Below, one piece after another: positions 4,123 through 64,000 of a stretch of DNA of 64,000 nt. The stretch comes from Anaerohalosphaeraceae bacterium (GTDB taxonomy: Bacteria; Planctomycetota; Phycisphaerae; Sedimentisphaerales; Anaerohalosphaeraceae). The translations under genes and the position numbers were made by a program. The stretch covers positions 192,001 to 256,000 of the forward strand of contig JBNRMN010000033.1 of assembly GCA_050309605.1 (NCBI GenBank). Direction: 5' to 3'. The number at the start of each line of letters is the position of its first letter. The first letter of the stretch is position 1. The notes under the pieces are model-generated. The model did not search any database, was not told the DNA's origin, and was given only the letters and a program-made list of their open reading frames with translations.

Positions 4123-4158
4123 CAAATCGTTCCTCACGTTTTAGACAAAACGGGTTGG

Positions 4159-4224: not shown

Positions 4225-4231
4225 AGAAACA

Positions 4232-4953: not shown

Positions 4954-4983
4954 ATCTGCCTCAGATATAATTAGAATCAATTA

Positions 4984-5040
4984 GCCCTGAAAGGGCGAAT
5001 CCTCAATTTTGCTCTTTAATCTTTGATTTTTGTTTTCAAA
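4984..5040. repeat. REP-like GCCCTGAAAGGGC hairpin plus degenerate T-rich heptamers
   Basis: Same hairpin as at 9876-9888, followed by ttttgct/ctttaat/ctttgat/ttttgtt units. Confidence 0.5.
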
Positions 5041-5085
5041 CGGGCCATCGGTTAGGTTGAGTTAACATCCCTTCGGGGTAAGATC

Positions 5086-6387: not shown

Positions 6388-6923
6388 GGCTTGATCATCT
6401 CCCGTCGCGGATAAAGAAGATGGACCAGCACCACCAGGACCACCACAAAGCAGCAAAACCCGATGACAAGCGGCACCCAAAAAAGCGGAATTTGCAGGGT
6501 CTGGGAGACCCGCTGAGGCGGGCGAGACAACTCCAGCCCGTAAAGGATGCTGCGCCAGCCCAGAAATCCGAACAGCGCCATCGACAGCAGCCGCATCAGG
6601 CTGTCCACCACAAGCCGGCTGGTGCGGTTAAGTTTGTGAAAAAAATACTCAATGGCCACGTGCCCTTTGACTGCGGTGGTATAGGGCAGGGCCGCGGCCA
6701 GCGTCAGTGCTCCGCAAATGCGCACGATGTCATACGCTCCGACAAACGGCCGATTGATCCACGGCAGACGCAGCACCACATCGGCGCACACCGTACCGAT
6801 CATCACCAGCACGCTTGCACCGGAAAGATAGAGCAGGCCGAACACAACGCCCCTGAGTATGCGGATGCAGCCGTGTTCGATTTTGCGTCCCGCCGACAGT
6901 CTGTCCGGATGTTCCTGAGGCAT
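6384..6923 (-). CDS. dctQ: TRAP transporter small permease (DctQ-like)
   Basis: Four hydrophobic segments, GHVAIE motif; lies between dctP and dctM. Confidence 0.88.
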   Translation of the reverse strand: MPQEHPDRLSAGRKIEHGCIRILRGVVFGLLYLSGASVLVMIGTVCADVVLRLPWINRPFVGAYDIVRICGALTLAAALPYTTAVKGHVAIEYFFHKLNRTSRLVVDSLMRLLSMALFGFLGWRSILYGLELSRPPQRVSQTLQIPLFWVPLVIGFCCFVVVLVVLVHLLYPRREMIKP

Positions 6924-6935
6924 TCTTGTTGCAGG

Positions 6936-7985
6936 TTAACGGGCCGCCGTGTGCGATTCTTCAATGAGCGTCAGCAGCCGCTGGAGAAAGGCTCTGCCGG
7001 GCAGTCCCTTGCTCTGGGCCTGGGCGGCATAATCTTCAAGAATCGGCTGCACCGCGTCTTTCCATTGCTGCTGCTGTTCAGGCGACAGATCAATGATCTC
7101 TCGCCCCAGTTCTTCAATATAGGCCAAAGCCTCCTGGTCGGCCTGATCCCAGGCCCGACCATGCTTTTCGACCCATTCATCGCTGACCTCAAGGACGGTT
7201 TGCTGTTGGTCCTCAGAGAGCTTGTCCCAACTGGTTTTGTTCATCACCACAAACATGGCCGTGGTGTAGCCAATAATCGACGTGTCCGTAATGGAATTGA
7301 TCACTTCGCCCTGATTCCAGCCTTTGAGCGTTTCGACCGGGCAGAAGGTGGCATCGACCACGCCTTTTTGAAGGGCCTCGTAGGTATCCGGCTGGTTCAT
7401 AGCCACCGTTGTTGCGCCGAGGTGCTGGGCGATCTTGGATGACAGTCCGGTGGCGCGAACCTTCAGTCCGGCCATCTCGTCCAGTGTGCGGACGGGTTTT
7501 TTGGAGGCCAGAATGCCCGGCCCGTGTGCGTGAATATACAGCAGCTTGACGTCGTTTAACTCGGCCGGCTCAAATTCTCGTGCGATAGCGGTGGCCGCCT
7601 GCGTCGCGACCATCCCGTTCGGATAGCCCAGCGGCAGATCAATCCCTTCCAGCAGCGGAAACCGCCCGCGCGTATAGGCAAAACAGCTCATTCCAATATC
7701 GGAAACGCCGTTCACCACGCCGTCATAGCACTGATCGGCTGAGGTCAGCGTCCCGGCCGGGTAGAGCGTAATCTGCACGGTGTCATCGGTGCGCCGGCGG
7801 ATTTCTTCGGCCCATTGCTCGGCCATTTGACACTGGATATGGGTGGAAGGAAAGAAGATGCTGTATCTCAGCTTTACGACGGGGGGGCCTCCGTCCGGGG
7901 TATCGGCCTTTTTACCGCAGCCGACAAGTCCAATCACAACCGCCAGACACACCGTCCACGCTACACATGGGGACATTCGTTTCAT
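6936..7985 (-). CDS. dctP: TRAP transporter substrate-binding lipoprotein (DctP-like)
   Basis: Lipobox [26 protein letters not shown] motifs; AGGAGG RBS. Confidence 0.92.
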
Positions 7986-8063
7986 GGTATTACCTCCTAA
8001 AATCGGATACCCGTATCGGATTCAGAACGAAAGCTATCCCGTTCTCACGATTTGCAGGTCCTT

Positions 8064-8092
8064 ATAGTAAACCCCGCACTCCGCTGATGCAA
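8064..8092 (-). promoter_or_regulatory. sigma70-type promoter for the TRAP operon
   Basis: TTGCAT-N17-TACTAT on the minus strand, followed by two hairpins in the 5' UTR. Confidence 0.55.
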
Positions 8093-8239
8093 GAAATAAT
8101 TCACGTCCGCAGTACAAGGGCGGGTTCATCCTTGACTTTTTCAGAGAAATGGCTGAAAGTAAAGGGCAGGTTCAGGTCGCCATACAAGTGATGTGGAGAA
8201 TACACTATGCGGGTACAGCCCCGAACGAGCGAGATCACA

Positions 8240-8668
8240 ATGAATGCAGAGGCCAGGTTTCCGACGCGAACGACGGTGCAGGCGTACACCATCCAGATCG
8301 TGCCGCGGTATGCCGAGACCGATCAGGCCGGCGTGGTGCACCATACGGTCTATCCGGTGTGGTTCGAGATGGGCCGCACGGAACTGCTGCGGGCCAACGG
8401 CCTGGCCTACAGCGATCTGGAAAAGGCGGGCATCTATTTTGTCGTGGCCGAGCTGGCCGTCAAATATCGCCGACCGGCCCTGTACGATGAGACGCTCGAT
8501 CTGATCACCGTCTGCACCCGCATCACGTCCGCCCGTGTGGAGCACACCTATACCCTCAAACGCCCCGCAACCGGCCTGATTTTGTGCGAAGGCACGTCGA
8601 TCCTGGCTTGTGTCGATGCCCAGGGCAAACCCCGCCGCATGCCCGACTTTATGTATCCGGCTGAATAA
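8240..8668 (+). CDS. Acyl-CoA thioesterase, YbgC/FadM hotdog family
   Basis: RYAETDQAGVVHHTVYPVWFEMGR motif; start uncertain (8207 or 8240). Confidence 0.9.
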   Translation: MNAEARFPTRTTVQAYTIQIVPRYAETDQAGVVHHTVYPVWFEMGRTELLRANGLAYSDLEKAGIYFVVAELAVKYRRPALYDETLDLITVCTRITSARVEHTYTLKRPATGLILCEGTSILACVDAQGKPRRMPDFMYPAE

Positions 8669-8866
8669 GACCGGAAGCGGCCTTGCACCGATTTTTCGCG
8701 GCGGACTGATCCTGAAAAAAGCGATTGCAGACGACCTCTGCCGAAAAAAAACTCAGCCACACTAAGAAAATATCCGCCAAAAGACCGATAAAAAACCTCT
8801 TTGTAAATCTTTTGTCAAGATTTTGAAAAAAAGTTAAATGACTCCCCTGTTATTCTTAATAACTCC

Positions 8867-8895
8867 TTGATATTTTCTTTGTAATCGTGTATATT
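8867..8895 (+). promoter_or_regulatory. sigma70-type promoter driving the small-ORF unit
   Basis: TTGATA-N17-TATATT in an AT-rich context. Confidence 0.7.
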
Positions 8896-8955
8896 AACCC
8901 TTGTAGCAATGAGGTTGAAAACTGAATAACAACAAGCAATCGTCTGGGGGTACAG

Positions 8956-9084
8956 ATGACCACGTTAAAAAACATAACCGAAATTCAATTGGCCGTGGAA
9001 GGCGGGCGGGGTCCGCCGGAAATACAACTGACCGATCGTCTCACGTCAATCAAGACCCAGAACCTGAATGCCCGAACCCACTGA
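8956..9084 (+). CDS. Small ORF A (42 aa) with RGPP motif: MTTLKNITEIQLAVEGGRGPPEIQLTDRLTSIKTQNLNARTH
   Basis: Manual translation; GGGGG 5 nt before the ATG; first ORF after the promoter. Confidence 0.5.
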   Translation: MTTLKNITEIQLAVEGGRGPPEIQLTDRLTSIKTQNLNARTH

Positions 9085-9100
9085 TAAAAGGAAAGTCAAA

Positions 9101-9184
9101 ATGCCAGAGACACGTGTTTATTGTCGGATTCGTCAGATGCCACCGGCAGCAGCGGTCAAAAACAAGGCCCCGCCGATAGAATAA
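9101..9184 (+). CDS. Small ORF B (27 aa) with KAPP motif: MPETRVYCRIRQMPPAAAVKNKAPPIE
   Basis: Manual translation; AAAGGA SD-like sequence upstream. Confidence 0.5.
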   Translation: MPETRVYCRIRQMPPAAAVKNKAPPIE

Positions 9185-9278
9185 ACGAAATGTTTTTGAG
9201 AAATTTTCGGCACGTCAGGCCGCTGTATTTTAAGTTTTATACGGTAAGCAATCGAAGTGATGATTTAAGGAATTCGTT

Positions 9279-9380
9279 ATGCCGCCGATTTTCGAAAACG
9301 ACCGAGTTATTACATTTTATCGGCCGTGCTGGGCTGCTCACGAACGCGGACCGCCGGGGGACACAAGAATGAAGCATTGA
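9279..9380 (+). CDS. Small ORF C (33 aa) with RGPP motif: MPPIFENDRVITFYRPCWAAHERGPPGDTRMKH
   Basis: Manual translation; TAAGGA SD-like sequence upstream. Confidence 0.5.
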   Translation: MPPIFENDRVITFYRPCWAAHERGPPGDTRMKH

Positions 9381-9490
9381 ATGAACCGCACTTATACGAT
9401 TATAATAACGCTCTTTGAATGACATCACATAGCCTGCACCGGATTTGGCCTTTTTTGCCTTCTCCTCCTCCGCTTCTGTCAGGTGCAGAC

Positions 9491-9539
9491 AGCACACAGC
9501 CGGCTCGGGTGCCTCCTTCCCGGGCCGGCGTGCTTTTTT
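9491..9539 (+). terminator. Intrinsic terminator with a CCUCCUU loop
   Basis: GCCGGCTCGGG-TGCCTCCTT-CCCGGGCCGGC stem-loop, extended by AGCAC/GTGCT, then TTTTTT. Confidence 0.8.
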
Positions 9540-9680
9540 ATAGTGTGCTCCGCGTCAATTCCGACATTATAACGGCTCTGCGGCAAGGGCGGCTTCAACG
9601 GTTGCGATGACTGCGAGTCCAAAGGCGTGAAGCGACAATAATAATCTTGAAATTTGGCCTGAAATTTTATCCCACCCTGA

Positions 9681-9823
9681 ACAACAGCGCGGCGGCGCAA
9701 GCCGCCCGATAGGGGATGCGGATAGATGGGGCGTTTTGTAAGTCGCGGCATTATCCGGCCGCTTGCGCGGCTCGGCTATTGTACGTGGTGTTATCCGGCT
9801 CACTTGCGCGGCTCGGCTATTGT
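9681..9823. repeat. REP-like family A: three ~32-bp copies (one inverted, two direct)
   Basis: ttatccggccgcttgcgcggctcggctattgt (9751-9782), a near-identical copy (9791-9823), and an inverted diverged copy (9681-9712) with a GCAA-loop hairpin. Confidence 0.8.
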
Positions 9824-9856
9824 GGGAGGGGGTATAAAACAAGAACAATTCGACTT

Positions 9857-10051
9857 GGCCTGAAGGGCCGAAAATGCCCTGAAAGGGCAATGATACCTTA
9901 GCCCAGCCCAGCGGGCTGGGTTGTGGGGTCACCGGTCGCCGGTCGCCCTGTAAGGGCAGGATAGTATATTGCTCTTTCAGAGCCAGGGGGTTCGTGGCCG
10001 ATATAACCCCAGGGCGTTGCCCTGGGCTGGGATATGCCGCCCCTTCGGGGC
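9857..10051. repeat. REP/BIME-like family B composite (GCCCTGAAAGGGC and CCCAGGGCGTTGCCCTGGG palindromes)
   Basis: Hairpins at 9857-9869, 9875-9889, 9902-9920, 9945-9957, 9971-9983, 10008-10026 and 10039-10051, arranged as two inverted halves. Confidence 0.8.
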
Positions 10052-10130
10052 GAAATGTGGAGCCGGCTATCGCCGGGGTGAAATGATACCATTCCGTTGC
10101 TGCGCGACCCCCCGCCTTGAAAAAAGAGGG

Positions 10131-10165
10131 AAAAAAAGGGCCTGACGCACGCTGCGCCAGACCCG
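10131..10165 (-). terminator. groEL intrinsic terminator
   Basis: Minus strand GGGTCTGGCGCA-GCG-TGCGTCAGGCCC followed by T7. Confidence 0.8.
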
Positions 10166-10196
10166 TAGGATACTGGGTTGACTGACAGGGGGCGGG

Positions 10197-11855
10197 TTAG
10201 TACATGCCTCCCATGCCGCCCATACCACCCATACCGCCCATACCGCCGCCGGGCGGCATGGCAGGGGCTTCTTTCTTTTCGGGGATTTCGCTGACGACCG
10301 CCTCGGTGGTCAGCAGCAGCGAGGCGATTGAAGCGCCATTCTGAAGCGCCGTGCGTTCGACCTTGGTCGGCACGATCACGCCGAACTTGACCATATCGCC
10401 GTATTCCTTGCGAAGGGCGTCGTAGCCGAAATTCTTCTCTTTGGACTCCAGAACCTTCTGGGCGACGATGGAGCCGTCCAGCCCGGCGTTGACCGCAATC
10501 TGTTTGATTGGAGCGACAATGGCACGACGCACAATATCGACGCCGACTTTTTCGTCGCCTTCGCACTTGATCTTGTCCAGCGCCGGCAGACACTTGAGCA
10601 TTGATACGCCGCCGCCCGGCAGAATCCCCTCTTCAACCGCGGCTCGACAGGCATGCAGGGCATCCTCGACGCGGGCCTTCTTTTCCTTCATCTCGGCCTC
10701 GGTGGCCGCACCGACTTTGATGACCGCCACGCCGCCGGCCAGTTTAGCCAGACGTTCCTGGAGCTTTTCAATGTCATATTCACTGGTCGAGGCGTCGATT
10801 TCCTTTTTGATCTGCTCGATTCGTCCCTTGATGTCGGCGGTCGAGCCGGCGCCTTCGACGATTGTGGTGGTGTCTTTGTCGATGGTGATGCGCTTGGCCT
10901 GGCCGAGCTGACTGAGCTGGACGTTTTCAAGCTGAATGCCCAAATCCTCGAAGATCGCCTGCCCGCCGGTCAGGATGGCGATATCCTGGAGCATCGCCTT
11001 GCGGCGGTCGCCAAAGCCCGGCGCCTTGACCGCACAGACCTGCAGCACGCCGCGCAGCTTGTTGACGACCAGCGTCGCCAGCGCTTCGCCTTCAATGTCT
11101 TCGGCAATAATCAGCAGCGGGCGTCCTTGTTTGGCCACCTGTTCCAGCACCGGCACCAGCGACTTGACGGCGCTGATTTTCTTTTCATGAATCAGCACAT
11201 ACGGCTTTTCCAGAACGACCGTCCGGTCTTCAGGCTGATTGATAAAGTGCGGGCTGAGGTATCCTTTGTCAAACTGCATCCCTTCGAGCAGATCCACGAC
11301 AGTCTCGAGCGACTGGCCTTCTTCGACGGTCATCACGCCGTCCTTGCCGACCTTGTCCATCGCCTCGGCCAGGGTCTTGCCGATCTCGGCATCCTGATTG
11401 GCCGAGCAGGTGGCCACCTGCTGAATCTGCTTGCTTGAATCGACCGGTATGCTCATCTTGGCCAGCTCATCGACCAGCGTCTCGACGGCCTTGTCGATCC
11501 CGCGTTTGACCTGCATCGGGTTGGCCCCGGCGGTGATGTTCTTGAGTCCCTCTTCGAAGATGGCCTCGGCCAGGATCGTGGCCGTAGTCGTCCCGTCGCC
11601 GGCGACGTTGCTGGTTTTGGAGGCCACTTCCTTGACCATCTGGGCGCCCATATTCTCATACGCGTCGGTCAATTCGATTTCTTTGGCCACCGTGACGCCG
11701 TCTTTGGTCACGGTCGGCGAGCCGAACGATTTTTCCAGAACGACATTCCGCCCGCAGGGGCCAAGCGTGATTTTGACCGCGCGGGCCAGTTTCCGCACGC
11801 CCTCGCGAATGGCGGTGCGGGCTTCAACATCGTATGCTATCTTTTTTGCTGCCAT
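10197..11855 (-). CDS. groEL: Chaperonin GroEL
   Basis: [20 protein letters not shown]-terminal GGM repeats; start at ATG 11855 (MAAKK). Confidence 0.99.
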
Positions 11856-34138: not shown

Positions 34139-35188
34139 CTACGAACGGAGTAGGATAGTCTTGAGTTGACGGCATTGTTTTTCTGGATTATCTAATATCG
34201 CCGAGGCCACAGCCACGGCTCGAATCCCCGTTTCCAGTACAGTGGGCAGGTTTTGAGCATTGATGCCGCCGATGGCCACGGGTCGGATAGAGGTGGATGC
34301 CAATTGCTGGACGGCCTGTCGGATGTAGTCCAGTCCTGCCGGCGCAAGGCCGGGTTTGGTCGGGCTGGCAAAGGCCGGGCCAACGCCCACGTAATCATAG
34401 CCTGCGGCGACGGCTTCGTTCAGTTCCTTGATCGCGTGGGTGCTGCCGCCGATGAGCATCGGCCTTTTCAGCAGCGTTCGGGCGGATTTTGGCAACATAT
34501 CGTCCTGTCCGAGATGGACACCGTCGGCCTGCGCCAAGGCCGCAATGTCGGGGCGATCGTTGATGATCCCCAGTGCTCCGTCGGTTCTGCATACCTCCAT
34601 AAACATCTCGGCCAGCGACAAAAAACGGCGGTCGGACAGGTCTTTTGCGCGAAGCTGGAGGGTGTCGGCGCCGCCGGCAATGCAGCGTCGGGCCAGTTGC
34701 CGTGCTGCGGTGTCAGTCGTTTTCGGATCGACGTTAATCAGCACATATAAGCTAATACGTTCGAGTTTATCCAGTTTATATACGGCCTCAAAGACCTTTT
34801 TTTCGAGGTCATACACCCCAAACCGAAGCCGCTCACAGACCGCCGCAACCTCGGCATCCAGCGTCCGGGTCATCTCGGCCAGGACGCGCAGGGCCTCGGT
34901 GGCGCGTTTGGCTGCGGCGGTAAAGCAATCGGCCAGGCTCGTCCGCGAAAGCTGTCCTTCGACGCTCAGTTCGCGTCCCACATCGCCGGCTACATCCCGC
35001 GCGGTCAGCAGGTTCTCCGCATCCAGCCGGGCAATGGCTCCGCACAATTGATGCCGCATTTGTTTGGCCCTGGCGCTGAGGGTTTTATCATCCAGCAGAA
35101 AACGGCAGTACTCCTCCATTCCCCGCAGCGCTTCCCGCGCCCGGTTAAAGTTGGCGTCAATAATTCGATAAAGACTTGTATCGCTCAT
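34139..35188 (-). CDS. thiE: Thiamine-phosphate synthase with N-terminal helical extension
   Basis: RIIDANFNRAREALR N-domain; QLRAK, INDRPD, DGVHLGQDD, GPAFASPTK, VAIGGI. Confidence 0.93.
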   Translation of the reverse strand: MSDTSLYRIIDANFNRAREALRGMEEYCRFLLDDKTLSARAKQMRHQLCGAIARLDAENLLTARDVAGDVGRELSVEGQLSRTSLADCFTAAAKRATEALRVLAEMTRTLDAEVAAVCERLRFGVYDLEKKVFEAVYKLDKLERISLYVLINVDPKTTDTAARQLARRCIAGGADTLQLRAKDLSDRRFLSLAEMFMEVCRTDGALGIINDRPDIAALAQADGVHLGQDDMLPKSARTLLKRPMLIGGSTHAIKELNEAVAAGYDYVGVGPAFASPTKPGLAPAGLDYIRQAVQQLASTSIRPVAIGGINAQNLPTVLETGIRAVAVASAILDNPEKQCRQLKTILLRS

Positions 35189-35309: not shown

Positions 35310-36509
35310 TTACTCCAGTGCGAGGATAAAGGGGTTTTCGAGGATTTCGACGACGCGGCGTAAAAAGCGGACGCCGTCGGCGCCGTCGATGATGCGATGG
35401 TCATAAGACAGCGATAATGGTACAATCAGCCGCGGCTGAAGTGTCTGGTCGATATAGACCGGTCGGCGGGTTGCGCGGGCAATGCCGAGGATCGCCGCCT
35501 GGGGCCAATAGATGATCGGTGCAAAGGCGCCGCCGCCCAGACCGCCGAGATTGCTGACGGTGAAATTACCGCCGACCATCTCTTCGGGTGCGACCTTGTG
35601 CTGTTTGGTGCGTTCGGCCAGCGAGGTCAATTCGACCGCGATCTGCAGAAGGCTTTTTTTGTCCACGTCGCGCAGCACCGGCACCAGCAGTCCGCGGTCG
35701 GTATCCACCGCAACGGACAAGTGGCAGTATTGCTTGTAAATGATTTCATTGGTCTGCGGATCGAACGAGGCGTTGAATTGCGCAAAGTCTTTCAAGGCCA
35801 GTGCTACGGCCTTGAGGGCAAGGGCGGTCAGCGTCAGTTTGCCGCCGGCGTCTTTGACCCGCTGGGCGCCGGCCTTGCGTAATTCTTCGAGCGTCGTGAT
35901 GTCGGCGTGGTCATATTGGGTCACCTGCGGGACCGTCGCCCAGGTATAACTGAGTGTGGCGGCGATTTTTTTCCGCGTTGTGGTAACGGCCTTGCGTTCA
36001 ATCGGCCCCCAGACGGAAAAATCGGGCAACGATTTGTCGGCCGGCGCCGCGGCGGGCGGCGGTGACAGCTCACGTTGCGAAGGTCGGTCGTCGGGCACTG
36101 CGCCTGCCGCTTTCGCCCCGTCAGGTTCCGAGGCTTCGGATTCCTGACGCACAGAGGCCGCCGCAGGCGCAGCTCCGACTTCCTTTGGCATAACAGCCGA
36201 ATTCTCCCCTTCGGACTGAGTTGTATCGGGCTGCCGGGGTCCGGGCCGGCCCGTGGGTGTTGTTTCTTCAATTTCCGTTTCCACCTTCATCAGAAGTTGG
36301 CCGACGTTGACGGTTTGTCCCGGTTCGATATGGAGTTCAATCACTTTGCCTTTGACAGGGGACGGCACGTCAAATGTTGCCTTTTCCGTTTCAAGCTGAA
36401 CCAGCGGTTCTTCCACATCAATGACATCGCCGACCTTGACGAAGATTTCGATTACGTCGCCGGATTCAACCGTTTCCGATATTTCAGGGAGCGTGATTTC
36501 TTTGATCAT
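35310..36509 (-). CDS. aceF: Dihydrolipoyl acyltransferase (PDH E2): single lipoyl domain, no recognisable PSBD
   Basis: LETEKATFDVPSP lipoyl site; FTVSNLGG; LSYDHRIIDGADG catalytic motif. Confidence 0.9.
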   Translation of the reverse strand: MIKEITLPEISETVESGDVIEIFVKVGDVIDVEEPLVQLETEKATFDVPSPVKGKVIELHIEPGQTVNVGQLLMKVETEIEETTPTGRPGPRQPDTTQSEGENSAVMPKEVGAAPAAASVRQESEASEPDGAKAAGAVPDDRPSQRELSPPPAAAPADKSLPDFSVWGPIERKAVTTTRKKIAATLSYTWATVPQVTQYDHADITTLEELRKAGAQRVKDAGGKLTLTALALKAVALALKDFAQFNASFDPQTNEIIYKQYCHLSVAVDTDRGLLVPVLRDVDKKSLLQIAVELTSLAERTKQHKVAPEEMVGGNFTVSNLGGLGGGAFAPIIYWPQAAILGIARATRRPVYIDQTLQPRLIVPLSLSYDHRIIDGADGVRFLRRVVEILENPFILALE

Positions 36510-36539
36510 TTGACATACCTCTTCTGTTTGTTTTTCCGC

Positions 36540-39062
36540 TTACACGGAAAGGGGGTTGGGTTTTTCGGGATCGATTTTCAGTTCCTGTATCGCGCGCTGG
36601 ACCAGGTCCAGTTGGATTTTACCTTCCTGGCTCAGTCCGACCAGGGCCGCCAGTGCAATGTATCGTGCGTCCACTTCGAAATAATCGCGCAGTTCGGCGC
36701 GTCCGTCGCTTCGACCGAACCCGTCGGCGCCCAGCGGCATCAGTCGTCCCGGCAGCCAGCGGGCAATCGAACAGGGCAGCGTCTTGAGGTAATCGGTGGC
36801 CGCGACAAACACGCCCTGCGTGTTCTCGAAGCAGCGTTCAATATAGCAGCGTCGCGTTTCGGACGGATGCAGCATATTCCATCGGGCTGCGGCTGCGGCG
36901 TCTTCATATAAGGCTTTGTAGCTGGTAACGCTCCAGACCTCCGCAGCCACTTCATAGCGCGACTCAAGCAGCTCTTTGGCCTTGACGGCCTCGTTGAGGA
37001 TGGCGCCGCTTCCGAGCAGGATCGCTTTGGGTGCATTGTTGTTCAGGCCGGCGGACTGATACCGATACATTCCCTTAAGAATTCCCTCTTCAACGCCGTC
37101 GGGCATCGGCGGCATCCGATAAAACTCATTGAGCATCGACACATAGTAAAACACGTTTTCCTGTTTCACATACATCCGGTGCAGACCGTCGCGTATAATG
37201 ACCGCCAGTTCATAGGCAAAGGCCGGATCGTAGGCTTTCAGGTTCGGGACGGCATAATAAAAATGATGGCTGTGGCCGTCCTGATGCTGCAAGCCCTCGC
37301 CGGCCAGGGTGGTTCGCCCGGAGATGCCGCCGATCAGAAAGCCGCGCGCCATGACATCGGCCGCGGCCCAGATCAAATCCATCATCCGATGCGCTCCAAA
37401 CAGTGAATAGAAGAAGTAAAACGGGATGATGTTCAGGTCGTGCGACGCATAGGCCGTGCCGGCGGCGATAAAGGAGGCCATCGAGCCGGCCTCGGTAATG
37501 CCTTCTTCAAGAATCGCTCCGTCTTTCTGTTCGTTGTAAAACAGCAGGGTGTCTTTGTCCACCGGTTCGTATCGCTGGCCGGACGGGCAGTAAATGCCGG
37601 CCTGTCGAAACAGCGCTTCCATGCCGAAGGTACGTGCCTCGTCGGGAACAATCGGAACGATGAGCTTGCCGATCTGCTTGTCGTTGAGCAGCTTGGCCAG
37701 CAGGCGAACGACGACCATGGTACTGGCTACTTCGCGGTCGCCGCTGCCTTTAAGAAACTCGTCGAACAACTCATCCGGCGGCATCTGCAGCGGTTTGACG
37801 ATGACCGTGCGGCGCGGCACGTATCCGCCGAGCTGTTTGCGTTGTTCCTGAAGATAGCGGATTTCCTTTGTGTCCGGGTTGGGTCGATAGAACGGCGCTT
37901 CCTGTACCTCCCCGTCCGGGATGGGGATGCCGAAGCGGCTTCGAAATTCGACCAGTTCTTCTTCGTTGAGTTTTTTCTGTTGATGGGTGATGTTGCGTCC
38001 CTCGGCCGCTTCGCCCAGTCCATAGCCTTTGATGGTCTGGGCGAGGATGACGGTCGGTTGTCCGGTATGCTCGATCGCCGCTTTGTAGGCGGCATAGACC
38101 TTCAGCGGATCATGGCCGCCCCGACTGAGCCGACGAAGTTGTTCATCGGACAGGTTGCTGACCATTTCCAGCAGTTTGGGGTCCGTGCCGAAAAAGTCTT
38201 TTCGGATAAAGTCACCGTCGGAGACGGCGTATTTCTGAAATTGTCCGTCGGGGACTTGCTCGGCTCGTTTGGCCAGTCGTCCTTCGGTGTCTTTGGCAAA
38301 CAGGGCGTCCCAGTCCGATCCCCATATCACTTTGATGACATTCCAGCCTGCGCCGTGAAAAATCGATTCCAGTTCCTGTATAATTTTTCCGTTTCCGCGT
38401 ACCGGTCCGTCCAGCCGCTGCAGGTTGCAGTTGACGACGAAAATCAGATTGTCCAGTTTTTCGCGTCCGGCGATGGACAGCGCGCCGAGACTTTCCGGTT
38501 CGTCCATCTCGCCGTCGCCCAGAAACGCCCAGACCTTGCGATCGCTCGGTGCGGCCAATTGCCGGTTTTCCAGATAGCGGTTGAACCGGGCCTGATAGAT
38601 TGCCATCAGAGGCGACAGCCCCATCGACACGGTGGGATACTGCCAGAACTCCGGCATAAGCCGCGGGTGCGGATAGGACGGCAGCCCGCCTTCGGACGCC
38701 AGCTCCGAGCGAAAGTTTTCCATATCAAATCCGCTGAGACGGCTTTCCAAAAACGCGCGGGCGTAAATTCCCGGAGCGGCGTGTCCCTGAAAATAGAGGA
38801 TATCGCCTTTTTGCTCGGGCGTGTCGGCTCGGAAGAAATGGTTAAACCCCACCTCCATCAAGGTCGCTGCGGATGCGTATGTCGAGATATGTCCGCCCAG
38901 TCCCGGTTTGTGGCGATTGGCGCGGATGACCATCGCCATCGCGTTCCAGCGGACAAGGCTTTTGATCCGCCGTTCGATTTCGCGCCGTCCCGGATAGGGC
39001 GGCTGCCGGTCGGCGGGTATCGTATTTACATAGGGTGTTGTTCCGTTCATCTGCGTTCTCAT
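36540..39062 (-). CDS. aceE: Pyruvate dehydrogenase E1, homodimeric AceE type, N-terminally shortened
   Basis: YVNTIP, RWNAMAMV, GGHISTY, GDGEMDEPES...NCN ThDP motif, EEGITEAGS, GEGLQHQDG. Confidence 0.95.
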   Translation of the reverse strand: MRTQMNGTTPYVNTIPADRQPPYPGRREIERRIKSLVRWNAMAMVIRANRHKPGLGGHISTYASAATLMEVGFNHFFRADTPEQKGDILYFQGHAAPGIYARAFLESRLSGFDMENFRSELASEGGLPSYPHPRLMPEFWQYPTVSMGLSPLMAIYQARFNRYLENRQLAAPSDRKVWAFLGDGEMDEPESLGALSIAGREKLDNLIFVVNCNLQRLDGPVRGNGKIIQELESIFHGAGWNVIKVIWGSDWDALFAKDTEGRLAKRAEQVPDGQFQKYAVSDGDFIRKDFFGTDPKLLEMVSNLSDEQLRRLSRGGHDPLKVYAAYKAAIEHTGQPTVILAQTIKGYGLGEAAEGRNITHQQKKLNEEELVEFRSRFGIPIPDGEVQEAPFYRPNPDTKEIRYLQEQRKQLGGYVPRRTVIVKPLQMPPDELFDEFLKGSGDREVASTMVVVRLLAKLLNDKQIGKLIVPIVPDEARTFGMEALFRQAGIYCPSGQRYEPVDKDTLLFYNEQKDGAILEEGITEAGSMASFIAAGTAYASHDLNIIPFYFFYSLFGAHRMMDLIWAAADVMARGFLIGGISGRTTLAGEGLQHQDGHSHHFYYAVPNLKAYDPAFAYELAVIIRDGLHRMYVKQENVFYYVSMLNEFYRMPPMPDGVEEGILKGMYRYQSAGLNNNAPKAILLGSGAILNEAVKAKELLESRYEVAAEVWSVTSYKALYEDAAAAARWNMLHPSETRRCYIERCFENTQGVFVAATDYLKTLPCSIARWLPGRLMPLGADGFGRSDGRAELRDYFEVDARYIALAALVGLSQEGKIQLDLVQRAIQELKIDPEKPNPLSV

Positions 39063-39073
39063 CAGTCGTTAGC

Positions 39074-39295
39074 TCAGGTTTTGCGTGAAGCGCAATAATA
39101 CATTCCCGACAGGCCGCACTGTTCCCACAGCGGGCACTCCGGACAATTGCAGCCGCGTTTTTCGATGGGCTGTTTGGCGGGGCCGCGGGCACAATACAGC
39201 CCTTCTTTGGAGCCTTTGGGGTAGCTCGGACAGGTCGAGCAGTTGCCCTGCATACAGACGGCAAAATGTTCACGGGTATCTTCAACTTTGGCCAT
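39074..39295 (-). CDS. Small Cys-rich protein (DUF2769-like)
   Basis: CSTCPSY...LYCARG...CNCPECP...YYC pattern. Confidence 0.75.
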   Translation of the reverse strand: MAKVEDTREHFAVCMQGNCSTCPSYPKGSKEGLYCARGPAKQPIEKRGCNCPECPLWEQCGLSGMYYCASRKT

Positions 39296-39349
39296 AACAG
39301 CTTATTTCCCGAGCGGTCCTTTTCGGCCGCAACAAGTCAATTCATTGAT

Positions 39350-40165
39350 TTATTTTTTCAATACACATATCGCTTCGGGCTGATTGAGGCAAAGAGCGAT
39401 GCTTTCCGATACCATAAATTCATAGGTATTGCCGGTCGGTCCAATGAAGCTTGTCACCAGATCCCGTCCGAGGACAATGCTTGTGCATTGCCCGCAACTG
39501 CAAAGCAGCACGCCTCCGGATGAGATACCCGGCGCCTTGACGATGCTGTCGGTTATCATTTGCCCGATGTGTTCCAGTTCGGTTTGATTGCCCTGAGGAT
39601 ACCGCCGAAACAGGAAATTATACAGATCGGGCGACAGGGCGAGGGTATACGGTCCGGGAAAGCCCGCCTTGTCCATCGCGGTTATTGCGCGGATCATATC
39701 CTCGGCTGCGGTTCCGACGTTGTCCCAGGAACTGAGTTTGATCGAATGACCGCCGGAGGCGGTAGTCAGGCCTTCCAGTCCGAGCGATTTGGCGCCGTTG
39801 AATAGCAGGGCATCTTCCTGTCGGGCGCAATCAATTGCCGCGGCGGCGGCTCGCCCCAAATCAATGGGCATACCACATTCTTCAAATGCGGCTACGTCGC
39901 GAATGGGCAGAGAAAACTTACTGTAAATCATCACCAGCGGCATCACGCATGGGGCGGTCATCTTGGCGCTGCCGACGGTTTTTTCGTCGAGGGGTTTGTC
40001 TTGGGAAGGATAATCCCGCATGCCCAGTCCAAACGGCCCCTGTGTCGGCAACATCCGCCGCGCGGTCATTTGACTCTTGGCCGCTGCGACGACGGTTTCG
40101 TCAATCTTTGCCCATAATTTTTCGCCGAAGGGCGCATCATTGCGATGTAAAAATCGTTCTGTCAT
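39350..40165 (-). CDS. Family 1 encapsulin shell protein (Linocin M18-like)
   Basis: FLHRNDAPFGEKLWAKID...ARRMLPTQGPFGLG, EDALLFNG, GPYTLALSP; 271 aa; cargo gene directly upstream. Confidence 0.92.
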   Translation of the reverse strand: MTERFLHRNDAPFGEKLWAKIDETVVAAAKSQMTARRMLPTQGPFGLGMRDYPSQDKPLDEKTVGSAKMTAPCVMPLVMIYSKFSLPIRDVAAFEECGMPIDLGRAAAAAIDCARQEDALLFNGAKSLGLEGLTTASGGHSIKLSSWDNVGTAAEDMIRAITAMDKAGFPGPYTLALSPDLYNFLFRRYPQGNQTELEHIGQMITDSIVKAPGISSGGVLLCSCGQCTSIVLGRDLVTSFIGPTGNTYEFMVSESIALCLNQPEAICVLKK

Positions 40166-40216
40166 AGATGCTCTCCATCATCTTTCATTTATCCTTTTGT
40201 TGATGCTGTTGCCGAG

Positions 40217-40585
40217 TTACGGCTTCAAGCTGCCCGGCGTTGCGATGGACGGTTTCGGCGGCGGTTCATTTGCATCGGAAGGCGAATCGATCTCGGCGGC
40301 CATCTCATCGACTTCCTCGGCGCCTTTGTCCAGATAATGCGCTTCATCCTTCAGCAATATCGCCAGCAAACGCTGGAATTCGCCGACATGAACACGTTCT
40401 TCATTGGCAATATCGAGAAGCACTTTTTTGGCCAACTCATTGTCGGTGGCCTCGGCGTGTGCTTCGTAAAGGGAGACCGCCTCTTCTTCGGCGGCCAGGT
40501 CGAGCCGCAGGGCACGAGCCAGTTCCGCATCGCTCATCTTGCGTCCCGGTACGACTCCGCTGAATGGATTGGTGAATTCCGGCAT
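40217..40585 (-). CDS. Encapsulin cargo: ferritin-like protein with C-terminal targeting peptide
   Basis: AEEEAVSLYE and DIANEERVHVGEF di-iron motifs; Pro-rich linker ending ATPGSLKP. Confidence 0.88.
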   Translation of the reverse strand: MPEFTNPFSGVVPGRKMSDAELARALRLDLAAEEEAVSLYEAHAEATDNELAKKVLLDIANEERVHVGEFQRLLAILLKDEAHYLDKGAEEVDEMAAEIDSPSDANEPPPKPSIATPGSLKP

Positions 40586-40611
40586 TTCAACATGTCTCCG
40601 TCAAGCTCGAT

Positions 40612-41013
40612 TTAATCGGTTACCTCGATATCCACTTCATATTCCCAGCATCCGTGCAGATTGCATCGTTCAAAGGCGCGCAGCTTGCCGTGTCCGTGAT
40701 CCAGCGCCACACAGACCTTCATTGCCGGGCACGTAGTTTTGGCCGTGAAATCCATTCGCGCCAGATACGTCTCACCCGCATACAGCTCGATAAACTGAAT
40801 GAAGTGTCCCGGCTCATTCGGGTGTTTGAGCAGTTTGCCCACTTCGACGGTCACCTCAAAACATTCGCCTTTTTTGACGCGCTTGGGAGCGGTGATTACC
40901 GGCAGATGCTTTTTTTCAAGATCACCGGCCTGCTCCGGATCGGGCACGATATTGACCCCGCAGAAAATGTCTTCCGCGCATTCCTCATTGACCTGTTTGG
41001 CTTTCGTAAACAT
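40612..41013 (-). CDS. Superoxide reductase (1Fe neelaredoxin / class II SORL)
   Basis: EKKH, HPNEPGHFI, CNLHG iron ligands; no desulforedoxin domain. Confidence 0.9.
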   Translation of the reverse strand: MFTKAKQVNEECAEDIFCGVNIVPDPEQAGDLEKKHLPVITAPKRVKKGECFEVTVEVGKLLKHPNEPGHFIQFIELYAGETYLARMDFTAKTTCPAMKVCVALDHGHGKLRAFERCNLHGCWEYEVDIEVTD

Positions 41014-41108: not shown

Positions 41109-41125
41109 AATAGGGAAATTCCTTA
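41109..41125. promoter_or_regulatory. Imperfect palindromic operator AATAGGGAAATTCCTTA, copy 1
   Basis: Identical 17-mer at 41970; lies 21 nt upstream of a TATAAG -10-like hexamer on the minus strand. Confidence 0.75.
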
Positions 41126-41209
41126 TTTTGTCCTTCACGATCCCTTAAACACAACGACTGTGTGTCGCCCGTCCTGTGATTGTGCGGTCGCAGGACGTTG
41201 GCCGACACG

Positions 41210-41674
41210 TTAGATTTCTTCCACATCGCTGTGGGGCGCAACGGAAAAATCGATCACGGTTTGGATATGAATGCACAACCGCCGCTCCAGTTGCGGCAGG
41301 GGGATTTGCCCTTCGGTTTGCGGCGCATAGCCGTTCAGGACGCCGACATTTTTGTAATCCGTCAGCGTTCCGACCAACTGGTATCCAACGTCCGTTTCTT
41401 TTTCCCACACGACCACTGAAATGCGCCTGTTTTGACGTAAATTTTTGACGGTACCGGGGCAGAACCACTCTGAGATGCTGATGTTCTCCGGTCCGATTTT
41501 TTCCATTTCGCCGGCGGCGGCCAGATGCGGCAAGCCATCGACGTCGGCCGTTGCAATAAAAACATGCCCGACCTTTTTGGCAAGGGCGACGGCTTTCTCG
41601 AGCACGTCGTTTTTTGTGTCGGCTCGTTTGGCCGGGGGGTCGTGGCAGGGATGGGTCGCGGCGGATGTGTTCAT
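41210..41674 (-). CDS. Pyridoxamine 5'-phosphate oxidase-like FMN-binding split-barrel protein
   Basis: FIATADVDGLPH, TVKNLRQNRRISV, GYQLVG. Confidence 0.8.
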   Translation of the reverse strand: MNTSAATHPCHDPPAKRADTKNDVLEKAVALAKKVGHVFIATADVDGLPHLAAAGEMEKIGPENISISEWFCPGTVKNLRQNRRISVVVWEKETDVGYQLVGTLTDYKNVGVLNGYAPQTEGQIPLPQLERRLCIHIQTVIDFSVAPHSDVEEI

Positions 41675-41856
41675 AATGCCTCCGGTTTACACAGGTTTTG
41701 GGCGTTGGCGGCCACACGGCCGCAGTTTTGACAGACAAATTTTCCGTCCCGTACCAGCGATTTGTAATCGTCCGGATAGGAAACCGGATAGCCCAGGTTG
41801 TTCAGATAGCATAGATGTTTGTCGTGGCCCGGATGGGGCATCTTGGGTTTATCCAT
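41671..41856 (-). CDS. Small His/Cys metal-binding protein (61 aa)
   Basis: HDKHLC...CQNCGR...NLCKP; GGGGAG RBS; start/stop overlap with the next gene. Confidence 0.75.
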   Translation of the reverse strand: MDKPKMPHPGHDKHLCYLNNLGYPVSYPDDYKSLVRDGKFVCQNCGRVAANAQNLCKPEAL

Positions 41857-41969: not shown

Positions 41970-41986
41970 AATAGGGAAATTCCTTA
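41970..41986. promoter_or_regulatory. Imperfect palindromic operator AATAGGGAAATTCCTTA, copy 2
   Basis: Identical to 41109-41125; 22 nt upstream of a TAATCT -10-like hexamer on the minus strand. Confidence 0.75.
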
Positions 41987-42140
41987 AAAACTTAGCCCGA
42001 ATTGCTGAATCGATTGAGGCCAGGATCATGAAGCGGTTGTTTTGACGGCTTGAGAGCGGATTTTCTGATAAAAAAACGAGACTCCCCCCCGGTTGGCCCG
42101 TTGTTGTGCGCGTGAAATCGTTTCGTTTGATCAGCGGGGA

Positions 42141-62412: not shown

Positions 62413-62577
62413 TCCATCACCTCCACATACACAATTTACATTTTGTCTTACTTGAACGTCTGTCAAATACGTGTTCTACCGCGTTGTCGGTCCATCTTGC
62501 CGAATACTTCGACGGATATGTCAATGAATGCAAATATGTGTTGATAAAGTGCCTATTTTCTCCTTTTTGTACGTTCC

Positions 62578-62606
62578 ACTATACCCATAACGCGCCAAAT
62601 TGTCAA
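62578..62606 (-). promoter_or_regulatory. sigma70-type promoter
   Basis: TTGACA-N17-TATAGT. Confidence 0.75.
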
Positions 62607-62669
62607 GTTTTTTTGTTTTTTCCCGTTTTTTTCTTAAAACCGGTTGGTGATGCGGGGGTATTTATTTAT

Positions 62670-62698
62670 TTGACGTGGTTTCGGGGCGGGGGTATGAT
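62670..62698 (+). promoter_or_regulatory. sigma70-type promoter for the vor-like operon
   Basis: TTGACG-N17-TATGAT. Confidence 0.75.
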
Positions 62699-62732
62699 GT
62701 TTTTTGAAATGTATCAGAGAAAGGGGCCGGTT

Positions 62733-62966
62733 ATGGCTGATAATAAAGCAGTTATTGAATTTGACAGTGACCGCTGCAAGGGTTGCGGTTTGTGTGTGAT
62801 TTTTTGTCCGCATCAGAATATTCGTATGTCGGATATCCTGAATGAGCAGGGCCATCCCTATGCGGAGTTGGTTGATGCGGATCGGTGTACGGGCTGCGGA
62901 TTATGCTATCGGATGTGTCCGGATACGGCCATCGCGATCCATCGCAGTAAAACGGCGAAACGATGA
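62733..62966 (+). CDS. 2x[4Fe-4S] ferredoxin, delta subunit of a 2-oxoacid:ferredoxin oxidoreductase
   Basis: CKGCGLCVIFCP and CTGCGLCYRMCP. Confidence 0.93.
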   Translation: MADNKAVIEFDSDRCKGCGLCVIFCPHQNIRMSDILNEQGHPYAELVDADRCTGCGLCYRMCPDTAIAIHRSKTAKR

Positions 62967-64000
62967 TGGGACAGAAAGTTCTTTTGAAAGGCAATGAGGC
63001 GATGGCCGCCGCGGCCGTAGAGGCGGGCTGTCGGTTTTTCGCGGGGTATCCGATCACGCCTCAAAATGAGGTGCCCGAATACTTTTCGTGGCGTTTGCCG
63101 CAGGCCGGCGGGGTCTTCGTGCAGGCCGAGAGCGAGGTGGCCGCGATCAATATGATCTTCGGCTCAGCCGCGGCCGGGGCGCGGAGCATGACCAGCTCAT
63201 CGTCGCCGGGGATCAGTCTCAAGCAAGAGGGTATCAGCTATATCGCTGCGGCTGAGCTTCCGTGTGTCATCGCCAACGTGCAGCGCGGCGGGCCGGGACT
63301 GGGCAATATCCGCGCTTCGCAGGGGGATTATTTTCAGGCGGTCAAAGGCGGCGGGCACGGTGATTATCGGCTGATCGTGCTGGCGCCGGCGTATGTGCAG
63401 GAATTGTACGATCTGACGATGCTTGCGTTTGACTGGGCGGATCTGTATCGCAATCCGGTGATGATTCTGGGCGATGGCATCCTGGGTCAGATTGCCGAGC
63501 CGCTGGAGTTAAGACCCTATCGGCCGATTGCCGAGCTTCCCGCCAAAGACTTTGCTCTGACCGGGTGTGCGGGGCGCGCTTCGCGCGTGGTTAAGACGCT
63601 GATTCTGAACCCTCCTGACGGTTTGGTTACCCACAATGATCACTTGCAGGACAAATATCGACGGATTGAGCGGGAATTGTCACTCTGCGAGGAATACGAA
63701 ACCGAGGACGCTGAGATTCTGATTGCAGCCTATGGGATGAGCGGACGCATCGCCAAAGGCGCGGTGCGCCGTGCTCGGCAAAAGGGCATTCGGGCCGGGC
63801 TGATTCGACCGATTACGCTGTGGCCGTTTCCGAAGGCGGCGATGCAGCGTGCGGTTGCCGATGTGCGTCGGGTTTTGGTTGTCGAAATGAGCTGCGGACA
63901 GTTTGTCGAGGATGTACGACTGGCGACCGAATGCAGCGTACCGGTGGAGTTTTTCGGTCGGGGCGGCGGCTGGTATCCGCTGGATACGGAGATTCTTGAG
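62963..64000 (+). CDS. vorB: 2-oxoacid:ferredoxin oxidoreductase alpha subunit (VorB-like), runs off window edge
   Basis: Manual translation: KGNEAMA...AGYPITPQNE...QAESEVAAINM...SSSSPGISLKQE...QRGGPGLG...GGGHGDY. Confidence 0.88.
   Translation, partial: MMGQKVLLKGNEAMAAAAVEAGCRFFAGYPITPQNEVPEYFSWRLPQAGGVFVQAESEVAAINMIFGSAAAGARSMTSSSSPGISLKQEGISYIAAAELPCVIANVQRGGPGLGNIRASQGDYFQAVKGGGHGDYRLIVLAPAYVQELYDLTMLAFDWADLYRNPVMILGDGILGQIAEPLELRPYRPIAELPAKDFALTGCAGRASRVVKTLILNPPDGLVTHNDHLQDKYRRIERELSLCEEYETEDAEILIAAYGMSGRIAKGAVRRARQKGIRAGLIRPITLWPFPKAAMQRAVADVRRVLVVEMSCGQFVEDVRLATECSVPVEFFGRGGGWYPLDTEILE

Follow-up and report, generated by a model that had tools for sequence, protein, structure and literature searches.

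Gene content of the locus

A cluster of six genes including superoxide reductase (SOR), encapsulin and pyruvate dehydrogenase (PDH) genes was analyzed in a 64,000-nt stretch of DNA, here called the window, from the Anaerohalosphaeraceae bacterium assembly GCA_050309605.1 (contig JBNRMN010000033.1, positions 192,001 to 256,000). Proteins were assigned to families with Pfam and NCBIfam models and their curated cut-offs. Relatives were retrieved from an order sample of 401 genomes assigned to Sedimentisphaerales by their record titles (encapsulin homologues at E ≤ 1e-40, aceE homologues at E ≤ 1e-100). Flanking regions of the remaining encapsulin loci (28) and aceE loci (45) were all compared with the window proteins. 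Genomes of the order sample are labeled G (G000 is the genome studied here), fetched loci L, contigs C and genera g.

All six open reading frames (ORFs) that an initial annotation of this DNA had described as co-oriented were found on the minus strand at the same coordinates, with gaps of 26, 51, 54, 11 and 30 nt. The SOR gene (40612..41013) encodes a 1Fe superoxide reductase of the neelaredoxin type (PF01880, 100 bits; TIGR00332, 75.8 bits, cut-off 61.9) without a desulforedoxin domain (2Fe model TIGR00320, 32.5 bits, below the cut-off of 146.9). The motifs EKKHLP and CNLHG, which we take to be its ligand motifs, are present. EncFtn (40217..40585) belongs to the EncB family of encapsulated ferritin-like cargo proteins (NF058679, 112.6 bits, cut-off 90). 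It is followed by the gene for a family 1 encapsulin shell protein (Enc; 39350..40165; NF041155, 231.7 bits, cut-off 100; PF04454, E = 9e-70), the only encapsulin found in the genome (one Linocin_M18 match). The next gene encodes a 73-aa DUF2769 protein with eight invariant Cys residues (39074..39295; PF10967, 52 bits). The aceE gene (36540..39062) encodes an 840-aa PDH E1 of the homodimeric type (TIGR00759, 1287 bits, cut-off 859.9) and is not of the 2-oxoglutarate exception type (TIGR03186, 1143 bits, below the cut-off of 1408). The last gene, aceF (35310..36509), encodes a 399-aa E2 with one lipoyl domain (PF00364, 66 bits), a linker and a catalytic domain (PF00198, 262 bits).

Upstream of SOR, on the same strand and separated from it by a gap of 196 nt, lies another unit. 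Its first gene (41671..41856, minus strand) encodes a conserved Cys/His protein of 61 aa that belongs to no Pfam family and is called Cys61 here. It overlaps by 4 nt a gene for a 154-aa PNPOx-like flavin-binding split-barrel protein (41210..41674, minus strand; PF01243, 26.1 bits, below the cut-off of 28.1).

The EncFtn proteins of relatives share the C-terminus PT[IV]G[DN]LK, and the protein in the window ends with TPGSLKP. No loading-peptide-like terminus was found on AceE, AceF, the lipoyl protein or E3 of relatives, DUF2769, SOR or the rubrerythrin-like protein. On this ground PDH was rejected as encapsulin cargo. EncFtn is the only predicted cargo.

Predicted operator and transcription units

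A 17-bp palindrome occurs twice in the locus. Copy 1 (41110..41126; minus strand ATAAGGAATTTCCCTAT) lies 97 nt upstream of SOR, and copy 2 (41971..41987; ATAGGGAAATTCCTTAA) lies approximately 115 nt upstream of Cys61. No other site in the genome comes within two mismatches of the consensus ATAGGGAAATTCCCTAT. Three further loci of this genome, those of rubredoxin, the rubrerythrin-like protein and the Cys61 paralogue, showed no copy nearby at up to five mismatches. The 17-mer of copy 2 also precedes a Cys61-aceE-aceF-E3 operon in G018, a genome with no close homologue of encapsulin. In other relatives, a perfect palindrome lies upstream of SOR (G121), and further copies were found upstream of DUF2769-aceE-aceF (G048), at two places in the G363 locus, and upstream of EncFtn-Enc in G016 and four genomes of genus g78. 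By chance, a site with ≤4 mismatches turns up in about 0.7% of random 250-nt windows. The palindrome is thus a cis element common to the member operons here and in relatives, and a predicted shared operator.

Between SOR and aceF, neither a terminator-like signal above shuffled background nor a strong sigma-70-like site was detected, although promoters of this phylum may differ. Parts of the stretch occur at ≥95% identity in three RNA-library runs, in small shares and as assembled contigs only. A contig of run X2 (38957-39325) spans the junction from DUF2769 to aceE with zero differences, and one of run X3 (39212-39421) spans the junction from the encapsulin gene to DUF2769. The DUF2769/aceE junction is therefore independently confirmed and is not an assembly error. 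Another X2 contig of 1386 nt covers the Cys61-PNPOx unit and stops at 41129, just before the operator. No contig covers 33800-34923 in any RNA run, which is uninformative alone. These contig ends fit two transcription units, with DNA carry-over possible.

The metagenome contig L154 shares 91–94% nucleotide identity with the window and has the order glycine-zipper gene, Cys61, PNPOx, operator, aceE. It is colinear with the window from the glycine-zipper gene to position 41090 and resumes at the start of aceE. The 27-nt scar between them matches without a difference the final 14 nt of the encapsulin gene and the 13 nt that come next. This colinearity and the scar indicate that a close relative deleted SOR, EncFtn, nearly all of the encapsulin gene and DUF2769. 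An N-truncated aceE lies directly behind the operator in L154. Three points follow from the gene order of L154: the PDH genes are served by the predicted promoter region in front of SOR, the SOR-to-DUF2769 cassette is dispensable between near strains, and the E1 truncation is older than the deletion.

A pared-down pyruvate dehydrogenase

The initial annotation had called the E1/E2 pair stripped-down. The pair is indeed reduced, but the description was too mild, as the E1 arm and E2's peripheral subunit-binding domain (PSBD) are gone besides the operon-type E3 (dihydrolipoyl dehydrogenase). AceE matches positions 49-884 of the 885 in TIGR00759, and positions 1-48 are unmatched. The protein lacks the N-terminal arm of approximately 47 aa (residues 1-55 in E. 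coli) that binds the E2 PSBD, and its reading frame closes 10 codons before the TPY motif. All ten relatives in the aceE alignment carry this ~47-residue arm with a conserved E-W-L motif. Across the 46 aceE loci of the order, 43 were assessable; the arm is present in 37 and missing in six, namely this genome and five with a solo aceE behind Cys61. The solo genes form a clade in the aceE tree (support 1.0) that does not include the gene of this genome, which implies two or more losses of the arm. A loss unique to this genome was rejected on these grounds. AceE carries 17 unique changes in 409 otherwise invariant columns (6–20 in relatives), most of them conservative, and has an ordinary branch length.

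AceF has no PF02817 (E3_binding) match at E ≤ 0.01; the match in relative G048 scores 54 bits. In the aceF alignment, the PSBD is present in all six relatives that reach the region, and just the remnant 'AAASVRQ' is left here. The protein scores 360.7 bits with TIGR01348, below the cut-off of 552.1, and the lipoyl-lysine (K43) and the DHRIIDG (DHRxxDG) motif are conserved. According to passages of two articles on the E. coli complex, the N-terminal region of E1 binds the PSBD, and isolated lipoyl domains stay substrates of E1 (PMC6270654, PMC10849603). Since the E1 arm and the E2 PSBD are both absent, both halves of the E1-E2 tether and the E3 docking site have been lost together. AceF also ends with ...LE, 3–6 residues short of the PSBD-bearing relatives, both here (window 35310-35320) and in the metagenome contig L156 (4580-4589). 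The last two E2 residues make inter-trimer contacts in E. coli, as a passage of PMC10849603 describes, and the E2 core may stop at trimers because the C-terminus is shortened.

No E3 gene occurs in the window, as the initial annotation noted, and in the genome as a whole (3.4 Mb, 99.7% complete) Pyr_redox_dim has three matches only, on contigs C82, C71 and C63. The scope of that statement needs a correction, in that two dihydrolipoyl dehydrogenases are encoded elsewhere in the genome (TIGR01350, 497 bits; NF004939, 600 bits). An operon-type E3 follows aceF in 12 of the 46 loci. It has no ortholog in this genome, where the best match is 31% identical. Several relatives have the full aceE-aceF-E3 set behind encapsulin, so E3 is absent from this lineage as a derived condition.

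The same pared-down architecture was found in L156, which encodes Cys61, an 838-aa AceE without the arm and a 371-aa AceF without the PSBD and with an equally short C-terminus; the next gene is an unrelated GidB gene, and there is no E3. The L156 AceE and AceF share 81% and 69% identity with those in the window. Because the diverged L156 shares it, the pared-down state appears to be maintained and not decaying. Other reductions occur in the order. Four species of genus g23 have EncFtn-Enc-aceE followed by an 82-aa lipoyl-only protein and a rubrerythrin-like gene, with E2 catalytic domains elsewhere in their genomes. In G260, a 210-aa lipoyl protein has no catalytic domain.

Conservation of the encapsulin-PDH linkage

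Encapsulin was found in 29 and aceE in 46 of the 401 genomes. Both are present in 15 genomes, against approximately 3.3 expected under independence by our own arithmetic. In 10 of these 15, including this genome, aceE lies directly downstream of the encapsulin gene, and these genomes represent three GTDB families. The gap between the encapsulin gene and the next gene is as short as 12 nt (G028). The adjacency of encapsulin and aceE is far beyond chance. The initial annotation had named beforehand a linkage unique to this genome as an outcome that would speak against its reading; the linkage recurs as described.

A scan of species-representative genomes with an alignment returned 71 EncFtn-Enc loci, while a scan with a single encapsulin protein yielded no relative. 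Ten of the 71 loci contain aceE, all titled as Planctomycetota groups such as Sedimentisphaerales, and one of them adds an eleventh genome. No aceE was found beside EncFtn-Enc in the Brocadiia, methanogen, Kiritimatiellae, Lentisphaerae or other loci among the 71.

The association extends to other stress genes. At least one gene for Cys61, SOR, DUF2769, EncFtn/Enc, a rubrerythrin-like protein, Ni-SOD, ferritin/Dps or hemerythrin is present in the fetched stretch of 28 of the 46 aceE loci. About six such genes were found in the 3.4-Mb genome studied here, from which we estimate that a random 20-kb stretch would hold one approximately 4% of the time.

Several gene arrangements were observed. SOR-EncFtn-Enc-DUF2769-aceE-aceF is followed by E3 or by a rubrerythrin-like gene, and EncFtn-Enc-aceE-aceF-E3 also occurs. 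SOR-DUF2769-aceE-aceF-E3 is found in G225, which has no encapsulin there, and SOR-DUF2769-aceE-aceF-Rbr-like-NiSOD in G374. The G363 locus reads ferritin-aceE-aceF-Rbr-like-NiSOD, with SOR and hemerythrin further on. EncFtn-Enc behaves as a cassette between SOR and DUF2769. In G266 and G278 the order is EncFtn-DUF2769-aceE with the shell gene gone, and the EncFtn proteins (98–99 aa) have no loading peptide. These orphan EncFtn genes (L127 of G266, 6420-6719; L142 of G278, 8722-9015) lie between SOR (in G278) and DUF2769-aceE, and indicate that encapsulin was lost and the ferroxidase retained.

A further set was observed in genus g78. In L034 (G300, 3719-10658), for example, genes for E1 alpha, E1 beta, an 82-aa ORF and a PSBD-bearing E2 lie approximately 2 kb upstream of EncFtn-Enc. 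An opposite-strand gene for a 622-aa protein separates this 2-oxoacid dehydrogenase set from EncFtn-Enc.

The Cys61/PNPOx unit and DUF2769

The Cys61 family comprises at least 250 homologous clusters, none with a Pfam family, and its members are nearly always 61 aa long with the invariant residues H8, H11, H14, C16, C42, C45 and C56. The family was found in Planctomycetota and Thermodesulfobacteriota. With the AF2 model of Cys61 (pLDDT 86), no PDB match was obtained in Foldseek (E ≤ 0.001) and no match of Z ≥ 2 in VIA-align wide; matches in the ESM Atlas were to unnamed clusters only. Cys61 adjoins aceE in many genomes of the order. In metagenomes, 68 Cys61 loci with at least 500 nt downstream were available, and aceE lies directly behind Cys61 in two of them. 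The next gene in metagenome loci encodes His_Phos_1 (14 of 40), BNR_4 (five), the ribonucleotide reductase large subunit (four) or GAF (three). The idea that Cys61 is a dedicated AceE partner or electron acceptor was dropped in view of these diverse downstream genes, the two aceE cases and the canonical rubredoxin of the genome. Homologues of the PNPOx-like protein were found near the locus in G108 and in metagenome loci.

DUF2769 lies directly upstream of aceE in 11 of its 20 copies in the order sample. The remaining copies are behind SOR or beside AhpC, Dps, hemerythrin or rubrerythrin genes. By its neighborhood, the predicted role of DUF2769 is that of a stress-cluster gene. The structure model of the protein (pLDDT 48) is too low for use. 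In the passages of the listed papers that mention it, DUF2769 is only named, as an uncharacterized small protein.

In genus g45 (L234, L235 and L240), SOR-DUF2769 is followed by genes for archease and the RNA ligase RtcB and then by a Dps-like ferritin gene, an arrangement that ties the RNA-repair pair to the SOR-DUF2769 stress cluster. L014 (G032, 7865-8425) contains a chimeric ORF that passes from an HtrA-like protease fragment into the C-terminal 44 residues of DUF2769. A full-length aceE lies immediately downstream of this ORF, which is a rearrangement scar. L241 (G121:C177, 846-2377) begins with DUF2769. Next come 148 aa from the catalytic domain of aceF, and then a true rubrerythrin that has a rubredoxin-like domain. 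The aceF fragment is another remnant of a PDH module.

Genome context and neighboring genes

A nifJ-type pyruvate:ferredoxin oxidoreductase (PFOR; 1872 bits) is encoded in the genome, and no cytochrome bd or heme-copper oxidase was found in it. Given the PFOR, the lack of a detected terminal oxidase and the defense genes, the organism reads as a fermentative obligate anaerobe with an oxygen-defense kit. LipA (lipoate synthase) and a lipoate-ligase-family gene are present. The single rubredoxin gene is on another contig and adjoins genes for a Fer2-FAD-NAD reductase, G6PD and a CoA_binding/Put_DNA-bind_N protein, presumably Rex-like. The Fer2-FAD-NAD reductase forms a gene pair with an unnamed protein of approximately 155 aa, beside rubredoxin in this genome (L153, G000:C2 5745-7331) and directly upstream of SOR-DUF2769-aceE in G374 (L130, 13289-15016). 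This pair is a candidate electron route from NAD(P)H to SOR. No AhpD-like gene is linked to the locus; the two CMD and five AhpC matches of the genome are on other contigs.

Other 2-oxoacid dehydrogenase components are encoded elsewhere. Contig C14 carries genes for another 2-oxoacid dehydrogenase, in which E1 alpha and beta are fused and E2 has two lipoyl domains. A second E2 of the g23 genomes (L114-L117) is an ortholog of this C14 E2; it is approximately 320 aa long, its lipoyl domain is joined almost directly to the catalytic domain, and it seems to lack a PSBD. Contig C8 (G000:C8:31053-31751; L009 8054-8755) encodes an E2 catalytic domain that stands alone, without lipoyl domain or PSBD. 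Such proteins are 233–243 aa long. One was also found in each of the five relatives checked, and it could act in trans on free lipoyl proteins.

Downstream of aceF, at a distance of 121 nt, a ThiD2-ThiE thiamine-phosphate synthase gene (34139..35188, minus strand) has its own strong promoter-like site (35262-35234; 11 of 12 positions match). It stands beside aceE in this genome and in none of the 45 other aceE loci, and is probably not part of the operon. The gene does lie directly behind a thiamine-dependent E1/E2 pair. The vor-like operon that the initial annotation had reported near the window end, at 62733, is likewise present; its genes encode a Fer4 protein (62484-62966) and a POR_N/PFOR_II protein (starting at 62963). 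This 2-oxoacid:ferredoxin oxidoreductase operon (62484-64000, plus strand) encodes a ferredoxin-like delta and then an alpha subunit, continues past the window end, and is distinct from the nifJ-type PFOR on contig C89.

Proposed function and alternative explanations

We consider it somewhat probable that the six genes form a single oxygen- and oxidative-stress operon of an obligate anaerobe, in which a PDH free of Fe-S clusters backs up the oxygen-labile PFOR. An O2-stress module had been suggested in the initial annotation, and the comparative data fit this reading, especially the version in which PDH replaces O2-labile ferredoxin oxidoreductases; the data concerned are the stress-gene linkage, the operator, L154, and the presence of PFOR without an oxidase. 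The other version, in which dihydrolipoamide serves as the reductant for defense, is weighed below. The operon would be transcribed from a promoter with the 17-bp palindromic operator, the second copy of which would control the Cys61/PNPOx-like unit. As its family suggests, SOR would reduce superoxide, and EncFtn would oxidize the Fe2+ freed from damaged Fe-S enzymes and store the iron within the encapsulin shell. AceE and AceF would use thiamine diphosphate and lipoate and no Fe-S cluster, and pyruvate could still be turned into acetyl-CoA when PFOR fails. E1 may work as a free enzyme on the E2 lipoyl arm, and the reduced lipoyl group may be re-oxidized by an undocked housekeeping Lpd, yielding NADH, or by another thiol acceptor. 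Reducing power may reach SOR via NAD(P)H, the Fer2-FAD reductase and rubredoxin, the latter two being encoded together elsewhere.

Several points weigh against a back-up PDH operon. Eighteen of the 46 aceE loci have no stress gene in the fetched stretch; five of these sit on contigs that are short or cut, and seven consist of a plain aceE-aceF-E3 operon. Among six other species of the same genus, encapsulin is present in none and aceE in one, so the locus is accessory. The palindrome is absent, within four mismatches, from the solo-aceE loci of genus g34. RNA libraries may include DNA, and one of the three runs probably consists of it. Park et al. 2004 reportedly found that E. coli-type complexes without the PSBD and the N-terminal arm lose overall activity; with both gone here, efficient formation of acetyl-CoA and NADH is not assured. 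Any extra NADH must still be disposed of by an anaerobe without an oxidase.

The reduction of the complex could also be read as a lipoyl-thiol redox relay, in which E1 and the lipoyl arm act as a pyruvate-driven reductase and AceF or the 82-aa lipoyl protein passes electrons to a peroxidase, the rubrerythrin-like protein, DUF2769 or SOR, with no E3 or NAD involved. The joint loss of the E3 gene, the PSBD and the E1 arm here and in L156 supports such a relay, as does the aceE and lipoyl-only pair followed by a rubrerythrin-like gene in the four g23 species, with a comparable case in G260. Likewise, 23 of the 28 stress-linked aceE loci have no adjacent E3, and in many loci a rubrerythrin-like gene lies directly behind aceF, the lipoyl protein or E3. 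There are precedents in the mycobacterial Lpd-DlaT-AhpD-AhpC system and in lipoyl-dependent Ohr/OsmC, and a passage of PMC8346489 names dihydrolipoamide as the OsmC reductant. However, no AhpD, Ohr or OsmC gene is linked to the locus, the CMD and AhpC genes being on other contigs, and a housekeeping Lpd exists. The lipoyl-only variant has no catalytic domain in cis to take off the acetyl group, and five stress-linked loci keep E1, a PSBD-bearing E2 and E3, which fits ordinary NADH production. We regard the relay as unlikely on balance. The patchiness of the locus, with no encapsulin in any congener, raises another alternative, namely that accessory genes without shared function gathered in a variable region. 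The deletion of the SOR-to-DUF2769 cassette in a near-identical strain agrees with this, as does the fact that EncFtn-Enc outside this order is never beside aceE, the ten loci among the 71 all having Planctomycetota titles. Such a chance gathering seems improbable in view of the 11–54 nt gaps here and the 12-nt gap in G028, the persistence of the linkage through at least five gene arrangements in three GTDB families, the operator common to encapsulin-free PDH operons, and the RNA-library contigs that span two junctions.

The shortened E1 and E2 might instead be remnants of a PDH operon that is being lost. Three parts of the classical complex are missing, and relatives are reduced further, to a solo aceE, to an aceF fragment in G121, and to a split aceE in G320, G333 and G337. 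Yet both frames are intact here with the lipoyl-lysine and DHRxxDG motifs kept, unique substitutions accumulate at an ordinary rate, L156 keeps the architecture despite 19–31% protein divergence, and the solo N-truncated aceE is a well-supported clade of intact genes in four species, all of which makes decay decidedly improbable. Finally, AceE, AceF or DUF2769 could be physically coupled to the encapsulin shell, loaded into it or docked on it. The encapsulin stop codon lies 12–54 nt from the next gene, and DUF2769 is always between the shell gene and aceE when both are present. Still, none of the three proteins has a PT[IV]G[DN]LK-like terminus, DUF2769 and aceE occur without encapsulin in G225, G374 and G048, and a 186-kDa E1 dimer with an E2 core would, by general knowledge, hardly fit a small family 1 shell. 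Such coupling is barely credible.

A bolder version of the relay takes the order as a whole. Three dismantled forms are observed: armless E1 with PSBD-less E2, E1 with a bare lipoyl protein, and E1 alone. PDH E1 may have been recruited as a free-standing, pyruvate-fueled electron source for O2 defense, with the complex dismantled at least three separate times and electrons leaving via the lipoyl arm or a small acceptor to SOR, the rubrerythrin-like protein or DUF2769, and not via E3 and NAD. We find this proposal doubtful, though worth stating; if true, it would give a 2-oxoacid dehydrogenase a physiological output that is new.

Relation to known systems and implications

The EncFtn-Enc pair resembles the family 1 encapsulins with EncFtn/Flp of Thermotoga maritima and Rhodospirillum rubrum, in which a cargo gene with a C-terminal loading peptide precedes the shell gene; assembly here is predicted from the genes. 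Unlike those pairs, it sits between SOR and DUF2769, and the operon runs on into PDH genes. In an encapsulin survey (PMC8346489), the word 'pyruvate' is absent from the main text. The PDH genes are of the E. coli/Azotobacter type, as AceE passes the equivalog model, AceF has the lipoyl-lysine and DHRxxDG, and relatives in the order have the full aceE-aceF-lpd set with PSBD and N-arm. They differ from that type in the absence of the E1 arm, the E2 PSBD and a cognate E3 gene, and in an E2 C-terminus that is 3–6 residues shorter than in relatives.

Switching to oxidant-resistant isozymes is known in E. coli, which uses PDH in air and PFL without air, and in which FumC and AcnA are controlled by SoxRS. 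According to part of a preprint, E. coli PDH engineered into Bacteroides thetaiotaomicron bypasses the O2-labile PFL and PFOR and raises oxygen tolerance (PMC13252398). The present locus is similar in that an O2-insensitive enzyme would substitute for an O2-labile step, and the genome holds both PFOR and PDH. It differs in that the substitute enzyme is in one operon with SOR and an iron-storing nanocompartment, in a natural anaerobe and as a dismantled complex, and induction by O2 is a prediction. A lipoylated E2 in an antioxidant context is shared with the Lpd-DlaT-AhpD-AhpC system of Mycobacterium tuberculosis, a resemblance that serves as a lead only; there, electrons come from NADH via Lpd, whereas in the present locus pyruvate would donate them, and neither Lpd nor AhpD is linked. 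The 1Fe-SOR with rubrerythrin-like, ferritin, hemerythrin and peroxiredoxin neighbors across relatives recalls the SOR-rubredoxin-rubrerythrin clusters of Desulfovibrio, Pyrococcus and Clostridium. Unlike in those clusters, rubredoxin is on another contig, the gene behind SOR is that of the Cys-rich DUF2769, and the cluster extends to PDH genes.

The initial annotation knew of no encapsulin-SOR-aceEF operon, and none was found described in the literature, searched by title, among the papers listed, for encapsulin with PDH and by title and abstract for encapsulin with SOR. Judged by title, the listed papers on encapsulin and PDH deal with nanocages, vaccines or biotechnology. Literature combining Sedimentisphaerales, oxygen and pyruvate dehydrogenase was likewise not found. 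All parts of the locus come from known families. The new elements are the conserved position of PDH within a stress operon of obligate anaerobes that also holds SOR and encapsulin, the sharing of a predicted operator, and the repeated and maintained dismantling of PDH.

It has long been asked why obligate anaerobes stall in air. In 2026, a preprint stated, in the part available, that added E. coli PDH relieves a main oxygen-imposed block in Bacteroides (PMC13252398), and the locus described here suggests that some natural anaerobes already use the PDH fix. The natural series of progressively dismantled PDH complexes could reveal which contacts are dispensable, and whether the lipoyl arm feeds antioxidant enzymes directly. 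Encapsulin biology gains a conserved set of non-cargo partners (SOR, DUF2769 and PDH) and cases in which shell loss has left an orphan EncFtn.

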